DNA of 64,000 nucleotides from Candidatus Bathyarchaeia archaeon (GTDB lineage: Archaea; Thermoproteota; Bathyarchaeia; Bathyarchaeales; Bathycorpusculaceae), in the NCBI GenBank assembly GCA_050012255.1, contig JBEKHN010000010.1:1-64000 (forward strand), written 5' to 3'. Of the stretch, positions 12,369-45,427 are shown piece after piece. The translations under genes were made by a program, and so were the position numbers. The first letter of the stretch is position 1. Each line of letters starts with the position of its first letter. Below the pieces are notes generated by a model. It was given only the letters and a program-made list of their open reading frames with translations. It did not search any database and was not told the DNA's origin.

Positions 12369-13166
12369 ATGACCGATGTAGAGAAAACCCGAGTGCGCAA
12401 AGGGTCTATCTGGAGTGGCACGGTTACGATAGGTCTGGTCAACGTGCCTGTTAGGCTGCAGGCCATGATTTTTGACAAGAGCGTTACCTTCAAGTTCCTT
12501 CACAAGACCGATAATTCACCCCTGAAGTACGAGAAAGTCTGCATCAAAGAAGACAAGGTCGTGCCATGGCAAGATGTCGTCAAAGGGTACGAGGTCAGAA
12601 AGGGCGAGTTCGTCGTATTCACCAACGATGAGCTGAAGGCAGCGAGGCCGGAGTCTGACCAGAGGATTCGCATCGACAAGTTCATTGATTACTTTTCAAT
12701 TGACCCTGTTTACTTTGACAGGTCATACATCTTGACTCCTGACAAGAGCAACGATGCCTACAGCCTGCTTCTAACGGCTCTGGAGAAGATGGGCAAGGCG
12801 GGGGTTGGCAGAATAACGTTAAGGACGAAGGAGTACCCGGTTCTGGTGCACCCTTACAAGGGCGCCCTGGTTTTGACCACTCTGCGCTACGCTTTCGAGG
12901 TTGCTGACCCTGGAAAACTGGAAGAGATCGAGAAACTCAAGGAACCTAAGAAAGAAGAGCTCGACCTAGCAAAGAAAATAGTCACCGATCTGTCAGGAGA
13001 GTTTGACATAACCGAGTACAGAGACACGTTCAAAGAGAAGATCGATCAACTGGTTCAGAAGAAGACGAAGGGTGAAACCATCACCCTTGAGAAGCCCGTG
13101 AAAGAGGAAGCCAAAGAACTGATGGTCGCGCTGCAAGAGACGCTTAAACAGCTGAAGAAGAAATGA
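12369..13166 (+). CDS. ku: Ku DNA end-binding protein
   Basis: SIWSG.V.IGLVNVPV, VVKGYE, IDPVYFDRSY, AYSLL, YRDTF; ATG at 12369, 2 nt after the POL stop. Confidence 0.95.
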   Translation: MTDVEKTRVRKGSIWSGTVTIGLVNVPVRLQAMIFDKSVTFKFLHKTDNSPLKYEKVCIKEDKVVPWQDVVKGYEVRKGEFVVFTNDELKAARPESDQRIRIDKFIDYFSIDPVYFDRSYILTPDKSNDAYSLLLTALEKMGKAGVGRITLRTKEYPVLVHPYKGALVLTTLRYAFEVADPGKLEEIEKLKEPKKEELDLAKKIVTDLSGEFDITEYRDTFKEKIDQLVQKKTKGETITLEKPVKEEAKELMVALQETLKQLKKK

Positions 13167-14557
13167 ACAGGCACTACAAGCCGATGCTCGCACAGTCCGC
13201 AAAAGCCCCGTTTAACTCAAAGGACTGGATCTTCGAGGTAAAATGGGACGGAATCAGAGCAATCAGCTACGCCAACGATGATCTGAGCATAAGGAGCCGG
13301 AATGACAAGGAATTAAGGTACAACTTTCCCGAGTTGGAAGAACTCAAAGACCTGGCAAAGAACGCGGTTCTCGACGGCGAAATCGTCGTCATGAAAGAAG
13401 GCAGCACGGACTTTCAAACACTCATGGAGAGAAGCAAGATGAGTTCACCACGGGACATCGAGCACATGTCTCGCGAATTCCCAGCAACTTATGTTGTTTT
13501 CGACATACTCGAAAGACATGGCAAACCTCTCATCGACCTTCCCCTAATCGAGAGAAAAGACATTCTCAAAGAGACCTTGAAAGAAGGAAAACACGTTATC
13601 ATATCGTTGTTCGTTGAGGACGAAGGCGAGATTTACTACAAGGAAGCCCTCAAGAAAGGCGTAGAGGGGATAATGGCAAAGAAAAAGGACAGCCCTTACA
13701 TGCTTGGAGTGCGGAGCGACAACTGGTTGAAGATAAAGAAGCTGCTGTCCTGCGATTGCGTGATTTTCGGGTACACTGCAGGAGAAGGAAACAGAGAAGA
13801 AGCATTTGGAGCACTGATCTTGGGACTGTATGAAAGGGACAAACCAGCGTACGTTGGCAAGGTTGGAACGGGTTTCTCACGGACCAGCATGAAACATCTG
13901 ATGGAACTCTTCCGAAGATTGGAGACAAGGGAGAAAACGCTTGAAGGAGTCGATGCTCCTGAAAAGGTCACTTGGCTCAAACCGGAGCTCGTGTGCGAAA
14001 TTGTCTATCAGGCTGCGACGAAGGATGACAGGCTGCGCATGCCCAGATTCCGCGTTCTCAGACCTGACAAGTCTCCGGTCGAATGCACCATAGACCAGAT
14101 ACGGCAGAGCAGCCTTCTGGAATACGCTTCGAAAAGAGACTTCACGGTCACGTCTGAGCCGGCGGGCAGCAAGAAGGACAGAGAAGGACAGGTCTTCGTT
14201 GTGCAGGAGCATCATGCCAGAAGATTGCACTATGACCTTCGCTTGGAAAAGGAAGGCGTCCTCAAGAGCTGGGCGGTGCCGAAGGGCATTCCGGAGAAGG
14301 TTGGCGACAAGAGGCTCGCTGTTCAGACGGAGGATCACCCGTTAGAATACGCCAACTTTGAGGGAACGATACCTGAGGGGCAGTATGGAGCTGGAACGGT
14401 AAAGATATGGGATAAAGGAACTTTCGATGTTAAACTCTGGAAAGAGGACATGGTAGAGCTCACGTTGAAGGGAGAGAAGCTTCACGGAAGGTACGTTCTG
14501 ACAAAGTTCAAGAAAGCAGGGGACGATGATTGGCTTCTGCTGAGGGCGAGAGACTGA
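13163..14557 (+). CDS. ligD: NHEJ ATP-dependent ligase fused to a C-terminal LigD 3'-phosphoesterase (LIG-PE)
   Basis: KPMLA, FEVKWDGIR, LDGEI, VFDIL, EGIMAK, WLKIK, VGKVGTGF, RMPRF; then YASKRDF.VTSEP, FVVQEHHARRLHYDLRLE, SWAVPKG, TEDHPLEYANFEG, YGAG.V.IWD. Confidence 0.95.
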   Translation: MNRHYKPMLAQSAKAPFNSKDWIFEVKWDGIRAISYANDDLSIRSRNDKELRYNFPELEELKDLAKNAVLDGEIVVMKEGSTDFQTLMERSKMSSPRDIEHMSREFPATYVVFDILERHGKPLIDLPLIERKDILKETLKEGKHVIISLFVEDEGEIYYKEALKKGVEGIMAKKKDSPYMLGVRSDNWLKIKKLLSCDCVIFGYTAGEGNREEAFGALILGLYERDKPAYVGKVGTGFSRTSMKHLMELFRRLETREKTLEGVDAPEKVTWLKPELVCEIVYQAATKDDRLRMPRFRVLRPDKSPVECTIDQIRQSSLLEYASKRDFTVTSEPAGSKKDREGQVFVVQEHHARRLHYDLRLEKEGVLKSWAVPKGIPEKVGDKRLAVQTEDHPLEYANFEGTIPEGQYGAGTVKIWDKGTFDVKLWKEDMVELTLKGEKLHGRYVLTKFKKAGDDDWLLLRARD

Positions 14558-15305: not shown

Positions 15306-15366
15306 AACTGAAGCTTTTTTTGTTATTCTTCTCAGAGTCGTGCTAGTGTCTTTTGACAAGCATGGC

Positions 15367-16071
15367 TTAGGTCTTTGGTGGTGGTGGCGATGGAATTCTG
15401 TCACTCGACACGTTGCCCTTACGCCTTCTTGCAACTAAAAGAACAGTCACTAAGGCAAAAACTATGGTAGTGACCATAAGCGTAAGAGCTATCCCTTGAT
15501 AGAAGTTTAAGCTACTTTTTAGTGAGTTGGTGTCACTCAGATACGTCTGATTTAGAGAAGCATAGGACTGTTCTAGTGAATCGTAATTTTGTGTAAGGTT
15601 GCTATACGTTACAGGATAGATGTTTCCGATTAAAAAGTTTGAATAGACTGAGTAGTCTTGCCCATTAAAGTTATAAGAGGCTTGAATTTCCCCTGTTAGA
15701 TATCCTGCATTACCATAGACTCTGGAAAAATTGTTATTCACATAGTAAGTGTTGTTTGCTACATAATCAGTATCTCCATGCATGGTCATGTTTGTCCACG
15801 TATAATTCCAAGATGTCCATTCGCCAAGGGGTCCAATGTTTCCATAAACCGCCACAAAGATGCGGGACACAGAAATATCATCAAAGATTGGTCGAACATC
15901 AAACGCTATAGAAAATTCCTGATTCGTCACCGCTTCAGTGGGTGCAATAACAGAGCATTGAAATGGAAAATCTTCAACTAGAAGAACGGATTGGTTTTGA
16001 GCTAAAACTGTATTCACTACTAATATAGATATTAAACAACTCAACATTAGAACAAACAACATTCTCTTCAT
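15367..16071 (-). CDS. Secreted, C-terminally membrane-anchored hypothetical protein (AT-rich)
   Basis: Signal peptide, many N-x-S/T sequons, coiled coil, TM helix, RRRK stop-transfer, Pro-rich tail. Confidence 0.8.
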   Translation of the reverse strand: MKRMLFVLMLSCLISILVVNTVLAQNQSVLLVEDFPFQCSVIAPTEAVTNQEFSIAFDVRPIFDDISVSRIFVAVYGNIGPLGEWTSWNYTWTNMTMHGDTDYVANNTYYVNNNFSRVYGNAGYLTGEIQASYNFNGQDYSVYSNFLIGNIYPVTYSNLTQNYDSLEQSYASLNQTYLSDTNSLKSSLNFYQGIALTLMVTTIVFALVTVLLVARRRKGNVSSDRIPSPPPPKT

Positions 16072-16264
16072 AATCCAATCACTAGTCCAGCTTCTGTTGC
16101 TATGCAGATTTAAGATTTCTGCCCTTAAGGTCTTACCTATGAGTAATACTTATTAACAATGATACTGGATTATTGATATAGTACGTTAGCCAAAACGCTT
16201 AAAAGTCTGTATTACCGCAAAAATCACGGATTTGAATCCTCAAACCCAAGTTCAAGAGTTGGGA

Positions 16265-16356
16265 TGCCGAGGATGGGAGTTGAACCCATGCTCCTTAGTG
16301 TGTGCCCGTCCCAGAGCAAAGACACGCTAAGGCTCGTCCGACCGAATTGCCTCGGC
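16265..16356 (-). ncRNA. tRNA-like RNA with reduced D arm and extended anticodon arm
   Basis: Acceptor GCCGAGG/CCTCGGC+A; T arm ATGGG-TTCAACT-CCCAT; long central hairpin; TTTAATAA box upstream at about 16386-16393. Confidence 0.65.
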
Positions 16357-16461
16357 ATTCCGGCCATATATCCACTGTCGAAACTTATTAAATTATCCGT
16401 AAAAGTTTTTGGGTTCCAATATGATTAAACTGACTCACTTTTTTGCCTTATATTTCCGTGT

Positions 16462-16500
16462 AAAACCATTTTTGACCATTTTAGGAACAAGCCAGCGCGC
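16462..16500. mobile_element. Solo IS/MITE terminal repeat
   Basis: Reverse complement GCGCGCTGGCTTGTTCCTAAAATGGTCAAAAATGGTTTT nearly matches the MITE end at 51581. Confidence 0.75.
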
Positions 16501-16563
16501 TATGAAAAAGACTGTTTGGGTTTAGGAGGTAAAGTCTTCTATTAACTTTTTTTTGGGTGAAAA

Positions 16564-16914
16564 CTAATACGTAACTCGCAAATCTCTGCTTCCGCCAGGA
16601 TGCCAGCCAGCCATTTTGAGCCATACGATGCTCAGCACGAGGAAATATGCCCACACTCCGAGAACGTAGATCAGAAAAAACTGAATGGTCATGGTAAGCC
16701 AGAAAAGGACGCCTGCAATAATAAAGGGCGCCGGAAATGCGGCGGTTAGAAGAATTGCGATCACTACCTGATTCTGCAGTATGTTTCGATGGCCTATAGG
16801 CATCTTGGTCTTCAGGTGTGTGAGGGCGTCGTCCTCGAAAAAGTAGATTAACTGCATTAGAAAGAACGTTTTCAGTTTTTGTTTCAGAGAAAGAAAGAGG
16901 GACTTGATTGTCAT
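16564..16914 (-). CDS. Small 2-TM hypothetical protein (start may be 16803)
   Basis: ORF with two hydrophobic helices. Confidence 0.5.
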   Translation of the reverse strand: MTIKSLFLSLKQKLKTFFLMQLIYFFEDDALTHLKTKMPIGHRNILQNQVVIAILLTAAFPAPFIIAGVLFWLTMTIQFFLIYVLGVWAYFLVLSIVWLKMAGWHPGGSRDLRVTY

Positions 16915-17055
16915 GAATCTCCCAACGACACGTTTTTGGGGCCTGCGTTATTTAGCCTGGAATCCAGCCCTGGCGCGCGCTCACAGCAGGACCAACTATG
17001 TATTTCACTAGATAGATGTTCGCTAAAAGCTTGTTGGGTTGGGGTTTGGGTTTGA

Positions 17056-17545
17056 GATAAAACTTTACCCCAACCAACCTTTTGCGTACTATGAGACTTG
17101 CTCACATGGAGAAAAAGGCGCCGAGGAGACGAGTAAACGCCCTATTTGTCTTCGCCGAGTATCTCGGCTAAGACTCGTTCTGCGTATAGAACATACTCGT
17201 CCATGTCTGGACCGAGAAGTACATGCATGACTTCATGGAAAACCACTAGAGTAAACTTTCTCAGACAGAAATCGAAATCGTTTTTCCAGTCGCAGTTGCC
17301 GACGTATATGTGGATGATTCCGTCTGGATTCTTCTTGTTTATGTCATACATGCCTTCAATTGGCGGAGGAACATAGTCCGTGCGAACCTTGCGTACGTAC
17401 TTCTTCTGTGCTTCTGACAAATCTAGAAGAATCACGATTTCCAAGAAGTATCCCATCTATCAAACAAGATTATTGACAGATGAAAATAAGAGACTTGTGT
17501 AATGTGTGTCATTAGTCGGTTTGGGTTTGGGGGTAAAGTTTTATC
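17056..17545. repeat. Inverted pair of a 16-bp element GGGGTAAAGTTTTATC (17056-17071 and 17530-17545); degenerate third copy near 16514-16540
   Basis: Exact reverse-complement match of the cores, each with GGTTTGGGTTT-like flanks. Confidence 0.7.
17142..17456 (-). CDS. Small hypothetical protein with an HExxH motif
   Basis: 104-aa ATG ORF containing VFHEVMHVLL. Confidence 0.65.
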   Translation of the reverse strand: MGYFLEIVILLDLSEAQKKYVRKVRTDYVPPPIEGMYDINKKNPDGIIHIYVGNCDWKNDFDFCLRKFTLVVFHEVMHVLLGPDMDEYVLYAERVLAEILGEDK

Positions 17546-17619
17546 CACACCACAACGCACGCAAGAATCCAAGGCTTTATCTTTTCTAACGATGTTACCC
17601 TGTCCAATAGGTCGGTCGA

Positions 17620-18294
17620 ATGAAGGCAGAGATTTTTCCTTTTTCTCTCGGGTTCAACGAATGCTACATAATTCGAGAACAGGGCGTGATAATGATTGAC
17701 GGTGGGACACCAAAGAAAAAAACGGATTTCATCAAGGCAATGAAAAACATTCCATTGGAGCCTGAGAACATCAAGTTGGTCGTCATAACAGATGGACATC
17801 CAGACCACATAGGCTCTGCCAGAGACATCAAAGAGGTCACGAAGGCGAAGATTGCCATGCATCGATTGGACAAGGATTGTCTTGAGTCTGGAAAATGGAA
17901 GGAGCGGATAAGACAAGGGGGGATAAGTAATAAACTGTTCGGTCGAGTCGTCGCATGGTTCTCTGGTGAGATTCCATCTGCTGAAGTTGAGCTAGTTGTC
18001 GAAGATGATGGTCTGTCTTTGAAGGAGTATGGAGTTTCTGGAAGAATTGTCTACACTCCTGGGCATACGATGGGTTCAGTCAGCGTGCTGTTGGATTCTG
18101 GAGAGGCTTTCGTGGGAGACCTTGCGATGAACAAGCTACCGCTCAGATTCGGCCCAGGGCTACCTACCGTCGCTGAAGATAGAGTGAAAGTCAAGGAAAG
18201 TTGGAGGAAGTTGCTGGAACTTGGGGTAACGACGGTCTATCCTGCGCACGGAAAACCCTTCTCAGCCGAAGTCATCAAGAAGGCTCTGAAGTAA
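17620..18294 (+). CDS. MBL-fold metallo-hydrolase
   Basis: IDGG, TDGHPDHIG (first His of HxHxDH replaced by Asp), TPGHT.GS, GD, YPAHG. Confidence 0.9.
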   Translation: MKAEIFPFSLGFNECYIIREQGVIMIDGGTPKKKTDFIKAMKNIPLEPENIKLVVITDGHPDHIGSARDIKEVTKAKIAMHRLDKDCLESGKWKERIRQGGISNKLFGRVVAWFSGEIPSAEVELVVEDDGLSLKEYGVSGRIVYTPGHTMGSVSVLLDSGEAFVGDLAMNKLPLRFGPGLPTVAEDRVKVKESWRKLLELGVTTVYPAHGKPFSAEVIKKALK

Positions 18295-18444
18295 TAGACT
18301 AAACACGTAAGTCACGTAGCAGTGTTTTTGGTTTGGTTGTACGTTGGTTGGTGGGTTTGTCATGAGTGGGTGGCTGCTTGGGCGCGCGCGACAGCAATGA
18401 GTGAGAAATTCCTATTTCGTTTTGTTTGCGCGCGTGGGGATTGA

Positions 18445-44985: not shown

Positions 44986-45113
44986 TGGGGTTACCAGCTT
45001 TTCCGGGTTCACATGGCCGAAGACCAAATTACAGCCGGAAACGGAGCGTGGTTTAACTTCTGAGTTCGGTATGGGATCAGGTGGGACCCGCGCCCTATGA
45101 CCGGCAAACCCCA
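44986..45113 (-). rRNA. rrf: 5S rRNA (stand-alone)
   Basis: Reverse complement has GGTCATAG...CACCTGATCCCATACCGAACTCAGAAGTTAA and pairing termini GGGGTTTGCCGG/CTGGTAACCCC. Confidence 0.95.
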
Positions 45114-45255: not shown

Positions 45256-45427
45256 GGGGTCGTAGTCTAGGCAGGTATGACGACGGGCTCCAGAAAGTAG
45301 CTAACGGGTTTGCGGACCTCAAAAGGGATGAAGAGGTTCTGGAGCTGTTAGAGAAACCCGTAGGAGCAGCGCCGAAAGCACTGTTTCCGGGGAAAGGTCG
45401 TCGGTTCAAATCCGGCCGGCCCCACCA
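45256..45427 (+). tRNA. tRNA-Trp(CCA) with two introns (45294-45355 at 37/38; about 45362-45394 in the variable region) and encoded CCA end
   Basis: Acceptor GGGGTCG/CGGCCCC, anticodon stem ACGGG/CCCGT with CT-CCA-G, T arm GTCGG-TTCAAAT-CCGGC, TATA-like TATATTTAAA upstream. Confidence 0.92.

Follow-up and report, generated by a model that had tools for sequence, protein, structure and literature searches.

A candidate tRNA-like RNA gene with a long stalk in place of the anticodon arm in a Bathyarchaeia archaeon

In this study, we analysed a 64,000-nucleotide stretch of DNA from a Candidatus Bathyarchaeia archaeon (assembly GCA_050012255.1, contig JBEKHN010000010.1, positions 1 to 64,000; hereafter the window), and found a 92-nt gene for a tRNA-like RNA on the minus strand at 16265-16356. 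Its acceptor stem and T arm are those of a tRNA, and a 40-nt arm stands in the place of the anticodon arm. We tentatively read the locus as a gene that stands alone and encodes a tRNA-like RNA without a decoding role; it was probably imported. We hold this reading with slightly less than even confidence. The host is a soil-type member of the Bathyarchaeia, and its genome assembly (2.35 Mb in 38 contigs) is 98.5% complete with 5% contamination.

Anatomy, predicted fold and transcription signals

A preliminary description of this locus, made from the sequence alone, had proposed a tRNA mimic with its own promoter. All of the minus-strand elements that it listed were recovered. They are given here in the direction of transcription, in window coordinates, together with the flanking signals.

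16505-16509, minus strand: T5 run between the upstream gene and the tRNA-like unit
16385-16392, minus strand: TATA-box-like TTTAATAA, 28 nt upstream of G1, the base that opens the acceptor stem
16350-16356, minus strand: acceptor stem, 5' strand GCCGAGG, pairing with 16266-16272 at 7/7 Watson-Crick positions (pair probability 0.97-1.0)
16333-16349, minus strand: CAA linker and D-like hairpin TTCG-GTCGGA-CGAG (hairpin 16333-16346), with GG in the loop and pair probabilities of 0.49-0.90
16293-16332, minus strand: long arm of 40 nt in the place of the anticodon arm, assigned from sequence and fold
16317-16332, minus strand: 5' strand of the long arm, CCTTAGCGTGTCTTTG (RNA: CCUUAGCGUGUCUUUG)
16309-16316, minus strand: in-register loop of the long arm, CTCTGGGA (RNA: CUCUGGGA), 8 nt
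16293-16308, minus strand: 3' strand of the long arm, CGGGCACACACTAAGG (RNA: CGGGCACACACUAAGG)
16290-16292, minus strand: variable linker AGC, 3 nt, before the T arm
16273-16289, minus strand: T arm ATGGG-TTCAACT-CCCAT, 17 nt
16266-16272, minus strand: acceptor stem, 3' strand CCTCGGC, followed by discriminator A at 16265; CCA is not encoded
16231-16244, minus strand: trailer hairpin UUUGA-GGAU-UCAAA, followed by a T5 run at 16219-16223; likely transcription stop, judged from the sequence

The perfect acceptor stem with its discriminator base, the canonical T arm, the shrunken D arm and the three-base linker are all as first described. U8 is absent, and CAA precedes the D hairpin. A tRNA is expected to have a 7-bp acceptor stem, a 5-bp T stem and a UUCRANY loop, and the candidate has each of them. 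This pattern occurs once in the window, where 0 occurrences are expected, and the anatomy is more than chance. The GC content of the 92-nt gene is 0.60. Pairing between the leader GGAAT and the trailer ATCCC had also been proposed; it holds at 4/5 positions, and the remaining position is an A-C mismatch.

We found that the minimum-energy structure of the 92-mer is a cloverleaf (-36.6 kcal/mol, z -2.28, with 3/200 shuffles as good), and that its helices have pair probabilities of 0.8-1.0 overall (ViennaRNA). When the leader and trailer are included, the cloverleaf (-55.5 kcal/mol) and the best alternative (-55.6 kcal/mol) are equally stable. The hairpin alone has a z-score of -2.3 and 29/1000 mononucleotide shuffles are as stable, so it is only moderately better than shuffles.

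The long arm had been described as an in-register 16-bp hairpin that closes a Gln-like loop of 8 nt. Both strands are present and pair at 14/16 positions, with a C-A mismatch, a C-C mismatch and three G-U pairs, and the loop does resemble that of the host tRNA-Gln(CUG), CUCUGGA. However, the top of this register (UUUG/CGGG closing CUCUGGGA) has a pair probability of 0.02 in ViennaRNA, whereas a shifted top, GCUC/GGGC with hexaloop UGGGAC and 4-nt bulge CUUU, has a probability of 0.90-0.95. The straight 16-bp helix is therefore predicted to be the less stable of the two registers, and the Gln-like loop belongs to it. From base to tip, the favoured arm consists of CCUUAG/CUAAGG (6 bp), a 1x1 C-A mismatch, GUGU/ACAC (4 bp), the 4-nt bulge, 4 bp and the hexaloop. 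The idea of an arm lengthened by one helical turn likewise belongs to the less stable register. An anticodon arm has a 5-bp stem, a 7-nt loop, U33 and a purine at 37; here the arm is 40 nt long and its loop has either 6 nt (UGGGAC) or, in register, 8 nt.

An overlapping reading that resembles the 5' half of a tRNA (GCCGGAA-UG-CCGA-GGCAAU-UCGG) was observed at 16341-16365 on the minus strand, starting 9 nt upstream of the gene. It has U8 and a perfect 4-bp D stem, and is the basis of the spurious ARAGORN 'Ala-AGC' calls described below. In a precursor fold, the leader of this reading can pair with the D region.

The upstream box TTTAATAA was found where the preliminary description had placed it, at a position compatible with a short leader. 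True tRNA genes of the host genome have GAAAGCTCTAAAT-type boxes about 35-45 nt upstream. Archaeal RNA polymerase uses oligo-T for termination, and T5 runs lie on both sides of the tRNA-like gene. Because of these runs and the TATA-like box of its own, co-transcription with the neighbouring genes seems unlikely. The gene looks like an independent transcription unit, in line with the earlier suggestion of a transcribed RNA.

tRNA ancestry, relatives and genomic setting

To place the candidate among tRNAs, we compared it with the tRNA genes of its own genome. The host tRNA-Cys (C4:23494-23566; own-genome BLAST) has exactly the same 17-nt T arm, and the T arm and acceptor 3' strand together match it at 96% over 24 nt. 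The acceptor stem differs from that of tRNA-Cys by a single compensated change, G5-C68 to A5-U68, and the acceptor together with A73 is identical to that of the host tRNA-Phe (C1:35537-35638). These matches indicate a T arm and acceptor of the host tRNA-Cys/tRNA-Phe type. For the origin of the 5' half and the hairpin, blastn-short against the host genome gave only chance matches of 11-16 nt.

The Rfam tRNA model (RF00005) aligned end to end with the candidate, over model positions 1-71, at 25.0 bits (E 0.0066 per genome). The curated gathering threshold of this model is 29 bits, at which the match goes unreported. ARAGORN made no tRNA call at the locus with or without introns (0-200 nt, whole genome). 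The candidate is tRNA-derived, yet it is no standard tRNA. The claim that the RNA, in its encoded form, does not serve in decoding was borne out by the ARAGORN result, by the sub-threshold Rfam score and by the splice search described below. An encoded CCA is absent from 13/42 listed host tRNA genes, as from the candidate, and present in 29/42.

We also considered other RNA families. At E<=10, searches of 461 nt and 98 nt against Rfam otherwise returned T-arm fragments only: tmRNA at 10.8 bits over 18 nt, mascRNA at 12.3, Tymo tRNA-like at 9.6 and sn2343 at 12.7. A tmRNA identity was rejected, as the Rfam match is restricted to those 18 nt and ARAGORN finds no tmRNA, and no Y-RNA family matched at E<=10. 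The tmRNA- or Y-RNA-like character suggested at first goes no further than the T arm. A tRNA-Pyl identity was rejected as well: no loop contains CUA, and the genome has no PylRS (best TIGR02367 match 26.9 bits, against a cut-off of 178.15).

The gene is located in a strain-specific islet with the following features.

15313-18428, no strand: islet of 3.1 kb with lower GC, delimited by synteny breaks against the two closest genomes
Within the islet, minus strand: three orphan genes, of 234, 116 and 104 aa
Within the islet, plus strand: a metallo-beta-lactamase (MBL)-fold gene

The flanks are 92-94% identical to the two closest genomes up to the breaks at 15313 and 18428, and the GC content of the islet is 0.37-0.46 against about 0.49-0.54 in the flanking DNA. 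At the same site the two closest genomes contain other genes, 4.5 kb in one and 1.6 kb in the second, and neither a tRNA-like sequence nor an integrase was found in these equivalent segments. The flexible site is bordered by a DUF72 gene on one side and a gene of the glyoxalase family on the other, and its gene set differs in each of the three genomes compared. The 116-aa gene lies upstream and the 234-aa gene downstream of the tRNA-like gene, on the same strand and with gaps of about 200 nt.

None of the three orphan proteins has a family in Pfam, PHROGs or NCBIfam. Among 25 relatives, no orthologues of the neighbour proteins were found at the thresholds used, except two weak matches for the 234-aa protein, and a search for loci related to the neighbour proteins found none. 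The 234-aa protein is predicted to be secreted and membrane-anchored, and its nearest atlas clusters are Bathyarchaeota-only. The 116-aa protein is a predicted membrane protein. The 104-aa protein has an HExxH motif. In a language-model comparison it falls nearest to virus clusters (score 0.93), though the features shared number only 143-147; we treat this weak link to viruses as a lead only.

The earlier suggestion of mobile-element cargo fits the strain-specific, low-GC islet loosely. Neither an integrase nor att-like repeats accompany it. The related idea that the gene marks an attachment (att) site was rejected, since its 3' part is not duplicated in the window, flanking direct repeats are absent and the islet contains no integrase. 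We consider import together with the small low-GC islet most likely, and the islet may be what is left of a virus or of some other mobile DNA.

Two side observations concern the islet and its surroundings. A recurring motif of about 30 nt occurs on the plus strand at 16514-16545, 17043-17071 and 17518-17545, and a degenerate copy on the minus strand (16249-16225) lies immediately 3' of the tRNA-like gene. The motif consists of GTTTGGGTTTGGG followed by GGTAAAGTTTTATC or by its near-palindromic partner GATAAAACTTTACCCC, and resembles a B recognition element (BRE)/TATA promoter with a G/T-rich upstream element. Genome-wide, GGTTTGGGTTTGAG has 11 matches at <=1 mismatch and GTTTGGGTTT has 30 exact matches. 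Outside the islet, at 13163-14557 on the plus strand, one 464-aa reading frame encodes an ATP-dependent DNA ligase with a C-terminal LigD 3'-phosphoesterase domain.

The search for relatives used BLAST and R1, a covariance model built from the single candidate sequence and the structure in the preliminary description, which had proposed to look for homologues. By BLAST, none of 40 relatives has a full-length match; 21/40 match, but only along a segment of 19-33 nt from the T arm and the 3' strand of the acceptor, and the partial matches inspected are tRNA-Cys or tRNA-Leu. R1 scores the candidate itself at 119 bits and the best other match in 150 family genomes at 39.4 bits, and the family-genome matches are ordinary or intron-bearing tRNAs, judged by length. 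At E<=1e-6, R1 found no match in 10 same-genus genomes and none in 150 class genomes. In 60 DUF72-linked syntenic loci it found 4 matches at E<=1, and the three that were aligned are ordinary tRNAs. The gapped pattern had 0 matches in viral contigs, and blastn against phages and plasmids gave 0. In metagenome contigs the gapped pattern found one locus, L129, which is 100% identical over 4,091 nt and brings no independent information. The candidate is a singleton, so there is no covariation and no evidence of selection. All of this weighs against our reading of the locus as a stand-alone RNA gene, as do the tRNA core without U8, A14 and A21, the modest structural z-scores (-2.3) and the putative promoter box TTTAATAA, which departs more from the consensus of host tRNA genes. 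An exact 21-mer also had 0 matches in the genome contig collection. Where a conserved RNA family has homologues with compensatory changes, the candidate has no homologue, and its sole match is 100% identical.

The preliminary description had itself held that a lack of homologues, covariation or transcripts would point to a decayed pseudo-tRNA, and we regard that explanation as the main rival. The locus would then be a dead paralogue: a copy of the Cys/Phe type with its anticodon region wrecked by insertion or rearrangement, maybe transcribed, functionless and too recent to have decayed. We put this at well below an even chance. It agrees with a singleton in a strain-specific islet that has no relative in any searched collection, with the defective core and with the Rfam score under threshold. 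For every amino acid checked, a separate tRNA gene is already present (Gln-CUG, Gln-UUG, Asp, Val, Phe, Cys and Tyr among them), with Glu-CUC and one Arg gene left unassigned in this inventory. However, all helices are intact, and a compensating change accompanies the single difference from the tRNA-Cys acceptor. The two strands of the extension pair at 14/16 positions, which is unlike what random insertion would be expected to leave. Furthermore, the GC content of 0.60 stands within an islet of 0.37-0.46, and a promoter-like box and a terminator-like end have been retained. Taken together, the intact top half, the two-sided pairing of the arm, the promoter-like box and T-run stops, and the high GC in an AT-richer islet favour an RNA that was shaped as an RNA.

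Another explanation is that the element is a signal of the t-element type, a mark that tells RNase P and tRNase Z where to cut so as to separate or mature the messages of the 116-aa gene upstream and the 234-aa gene downstream. The t-elements of Haloferax are the archaeal precedent for the processing of a tRNA-like RNA; like the candidate, they are tRNA-shaped and non-decoding, and recognition is expected through the acceptor/T-arm half (PMC4326828, in excerpt). The three units here indeed share the minus strand, and about 200 nt separate each from the next. Haloferax t-elements adjoin the RNA that they mature (5S rRNA). The T5 runs at 16509-16505 and 16223-16219 and the TATA-like box separate the three units, and the candidate is a full four-arm molecule rather than a minimal acceptor/T-arm mimic. 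We regard this explanation as improbable.

Search for a hidden splice

The canonical splice signal of archaeal pre-tRNAs, the bulge-helix-bulge (BHB), consists of a helix of 4 bp with a 3-nt bulge on either side, in the definition excerpted from PMC4090602. We derived the register of our scan from this definition and then checked it against real host tRNA genes. The host genome contains many interrupted tRNA genes, with canonical and non-canonical introns. The scan recovered the intron of tRNA-Phe at 30/31, with central helix CGCU/GGCG and a 6-bp inner helix, and a hand parse of tRNA-Gln(UUG) (C19:16557-16653) gave a strict BHB at 10/11. Both of the non-canonical introns parsed obey the strict rule. 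In the long arm, the same scan, which also returns many chance 4-bp matches, found no strict BHB. The favoured fold holds half of one (4-bp helix, bulge, helix), and on its 3' side a 1x1 mismatch stands where a 3-nt bulge is needed.

Furthermore, we screened 660 variants, each with one deletion of 8-40 nt in the region that separates the D hairpin from the T arm. A product passed if it had a 5-bp stem with at least 4 pairs and a 7-nt loop with U33 and R37. With the D arm kept as first described, 0/660 deletions gave a valid anticodon arm. With looser junctions, 4/660 passed formally, each by the removal of 19 nt. All four share the stem UUAGC/ACUAA with a C31-A39 mismatch and G32; their anticodons are CAC, GAC or GUC, and their cut sites have 2, 0, 1 and 1 of 4 central-helix pairs. 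The host genome already contains genes for Val-CAC, Val-GAC and Asp-GUC, and likewise for Gln-CUG and Gln-UUG. On 2,224 in-silico spliced variants, ARAGORN made 67 calls of two kinds, none of them credible: 'Ala-AGC' in 65 variants, with a different 5-of-7 acceptor that begins 9 nt upstream, and 'Lys-UUU' in 2 variants, with C33. Within these searches, no splice was found to restore a decoding tRNA, and the earlier statement that no BHB restores a normal loop stands: the arm contains no strict BHB and no deletion product is credible.

Could a lenient endonuclease nevertheless cut the arm at a relaxed hBH/HBh' motif? Such a cut would turn an intron-bearing precursor into a 73-nt tRNA such as Asp-GUC or Val-CAC/GAC. 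Relaxed motifs of this kind are reported for alpha2-beta2 endonucleases, in the part of PMC4090602 on which we draw, and the genome is rich in both kinds of intron. Like an archaeal intron-containing pre-tRNA, the candidate has the top half of a tRNA and extra sequence in the anticodon arm, and its 92 nt would suit a 19-nt intron (92 - 19 = 73). In our hand numbering, a 19-nt deletion yields standard segment lengths and leaves G18G19 and G15-C48 in place, and the favoured fold supplies the half BHB. Unlike such a pre-tRNA, however, the arm does not have a 4-bp helix between 3-nt bulges, and deletion leaves no acceptable arm. Only the four formal products were found, each with the mismatch and G32 and with 0-2 of 4 central-helix pairs, and the ARAGORN calls among the variants were all 'Ala-AGC' or 'Lys-UUU'. 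The genes that such a splice would produce already exist, and the host introns parsed in tRNA-Phe and tRNA-Gln(UUG) follow the strict rule. This explanation is therefore rated as quite unlikely, slightly below the processing signal.

At 16328-16352 on the minus strand, we observed a BHB-like motif at 10/11, with central helix AGGC/GCCU and an inner helix UCG/CGA formed by bases of the D stem. In this last explanation the D arm would itself be an intron of 19 nt. All 4/4 central pairs of the motif are Watson-Crick, and its inner and outer helices have 3 bp and 2 bp. In quality it equals the true tRNA-Gln(UUG) intron, whose position it shares. However, a hand parse of the 73-nt product finds a 9-bp hairpin retained and neither a D arm nor a 5-bp anticodon stem possible, and the scan yields many equally good 4-bp coincidences. 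As the product is no cloverleaf, we take the motif as a coincidence and give the explanation hardly any weight.

Other tRNA genes of the host were observed during this analysis. Without introns, ARAGORN finds 29 tRNA genes, compared with 51 matches of the Rfam model at E<=10 (39 above threshold), which indicates that standard finders overlook many tRNAs of this lineage. Outside the window, C8:29455-29526 (plus strand) has a T arm, an acceptor 3' strand, G73 and CCA, and no matching 5' acceptor strand within 330 nt; it could represent the 3' half of a tRNA that is split or heavily interrupted. Inside the window, a 169-nt tRNA-Trp(CCA) gene at 45256-45424 (plus strand) is located 150 nt from a 5S rRNA gene (44989-45108, minus strand). 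ARAGORN calls a 76-nt intron in it at the canonical position, and the remainder suggests an additional interruption. A box C/D RNA is known in the Trp intron of other archaea, according to an excerpt of PMC4090602.

A proposed non-decoding RNA and its analogues

For the preferred reading, a stand-alone gene for a non-decoding tRNA-like RNA, we propose the following course of events. Transcription would start from the TATA-like box of the gene and end at the trailer hairpin and T5 run. The intact acceptor/T-arm minihelix, with an elbow formed by the D-loop GG and the T loop, would make the transcript a substrate of RNase P and tRNase Z, and CCA addition would follow. We expect these enzymes to accept it because they recognise the acceptor/T-arm half. 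The mature RNA would be about 95 nt long and stable. The arm at the anticodon position is some 9-11 bp too long, and in the favoured fold it ends in a hexaloop without U33, so by its geometry it should not fit the ribosomal decoding site. In the cell, the RNA might compete with tRNAs for the enzymes that bind them or serve as a decoy for these enzymes, or might have no role.

Phage T4 RNAC and RNAD and phage T5 RNA1 are small RNAs with a tRNA body in which a long stalk replaces the decoding arm. By shape, these phage RNAs appear to be the closest analogues of the candidate. Unlike the candidate, they are phage-encoded and lie in tRNA clusters of bacterial phages, whereas the candidate stands alone in an islet of an archaeal chromosome and has no sequence match in phage records. 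The roles of RNAC and RNAD are described as unknown in the excerpted text of PMC3014915.

Other systems share fewer features with the candidate. Its in-register loop CUCUGGGA equals the host tRNA-Gln(CUG) loop plus one G, which recalls the frameshift-suppressor tRNAs with 8-nt anticodon loops. However, the 8-nt register has a probability of 0.02, and by inferred geometry the arm is about 11 bp too long for the ribosome. tRNA-Pyl has a compact core: its variable linker is 3 nt long, its D loop is small and its anticodon stem has 6 bp or more. The candidate has the same linker length, a small D loop and a long stem at the anticodon position, but unlike tRNA-Pyl it has no CUA anticodon, and its host genome encodes no PylRS.

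It is conceivable, though we hold it less likely than the preferred reading as such, that the candidate is a working non-decoding small RNA of the archaeon or of an archaeal virus whose remnant is the islet. The enzymes that process tRNA ends would mature such an RNA, which would carry its stalk in place of the anticodon arm, as an archaeal counterpart of the T4 and T5 RNAs. It could lure away or compete for enzymes that bind tRNA, or do the same to nucleases that target tRNAs in defence or attack.

The weight of a single-copy finding is modest. If the locus is a dead paralogue, it illustrates how a tRNA gene can be disabled while a perfect top half is retained, and it is a caution that finders blind to the BHB and finders dependent on it both mishandle such genes in intron-rich archaea. 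If the RNA is expressed and processed, it would join the very small number of tRNA-shaped RNAs without a decoding role that are known from an archaeal chromosome. It would also offer a handle on the purpose of long-stalked tRNA mimics, a question since the small RNAs of phage T4.

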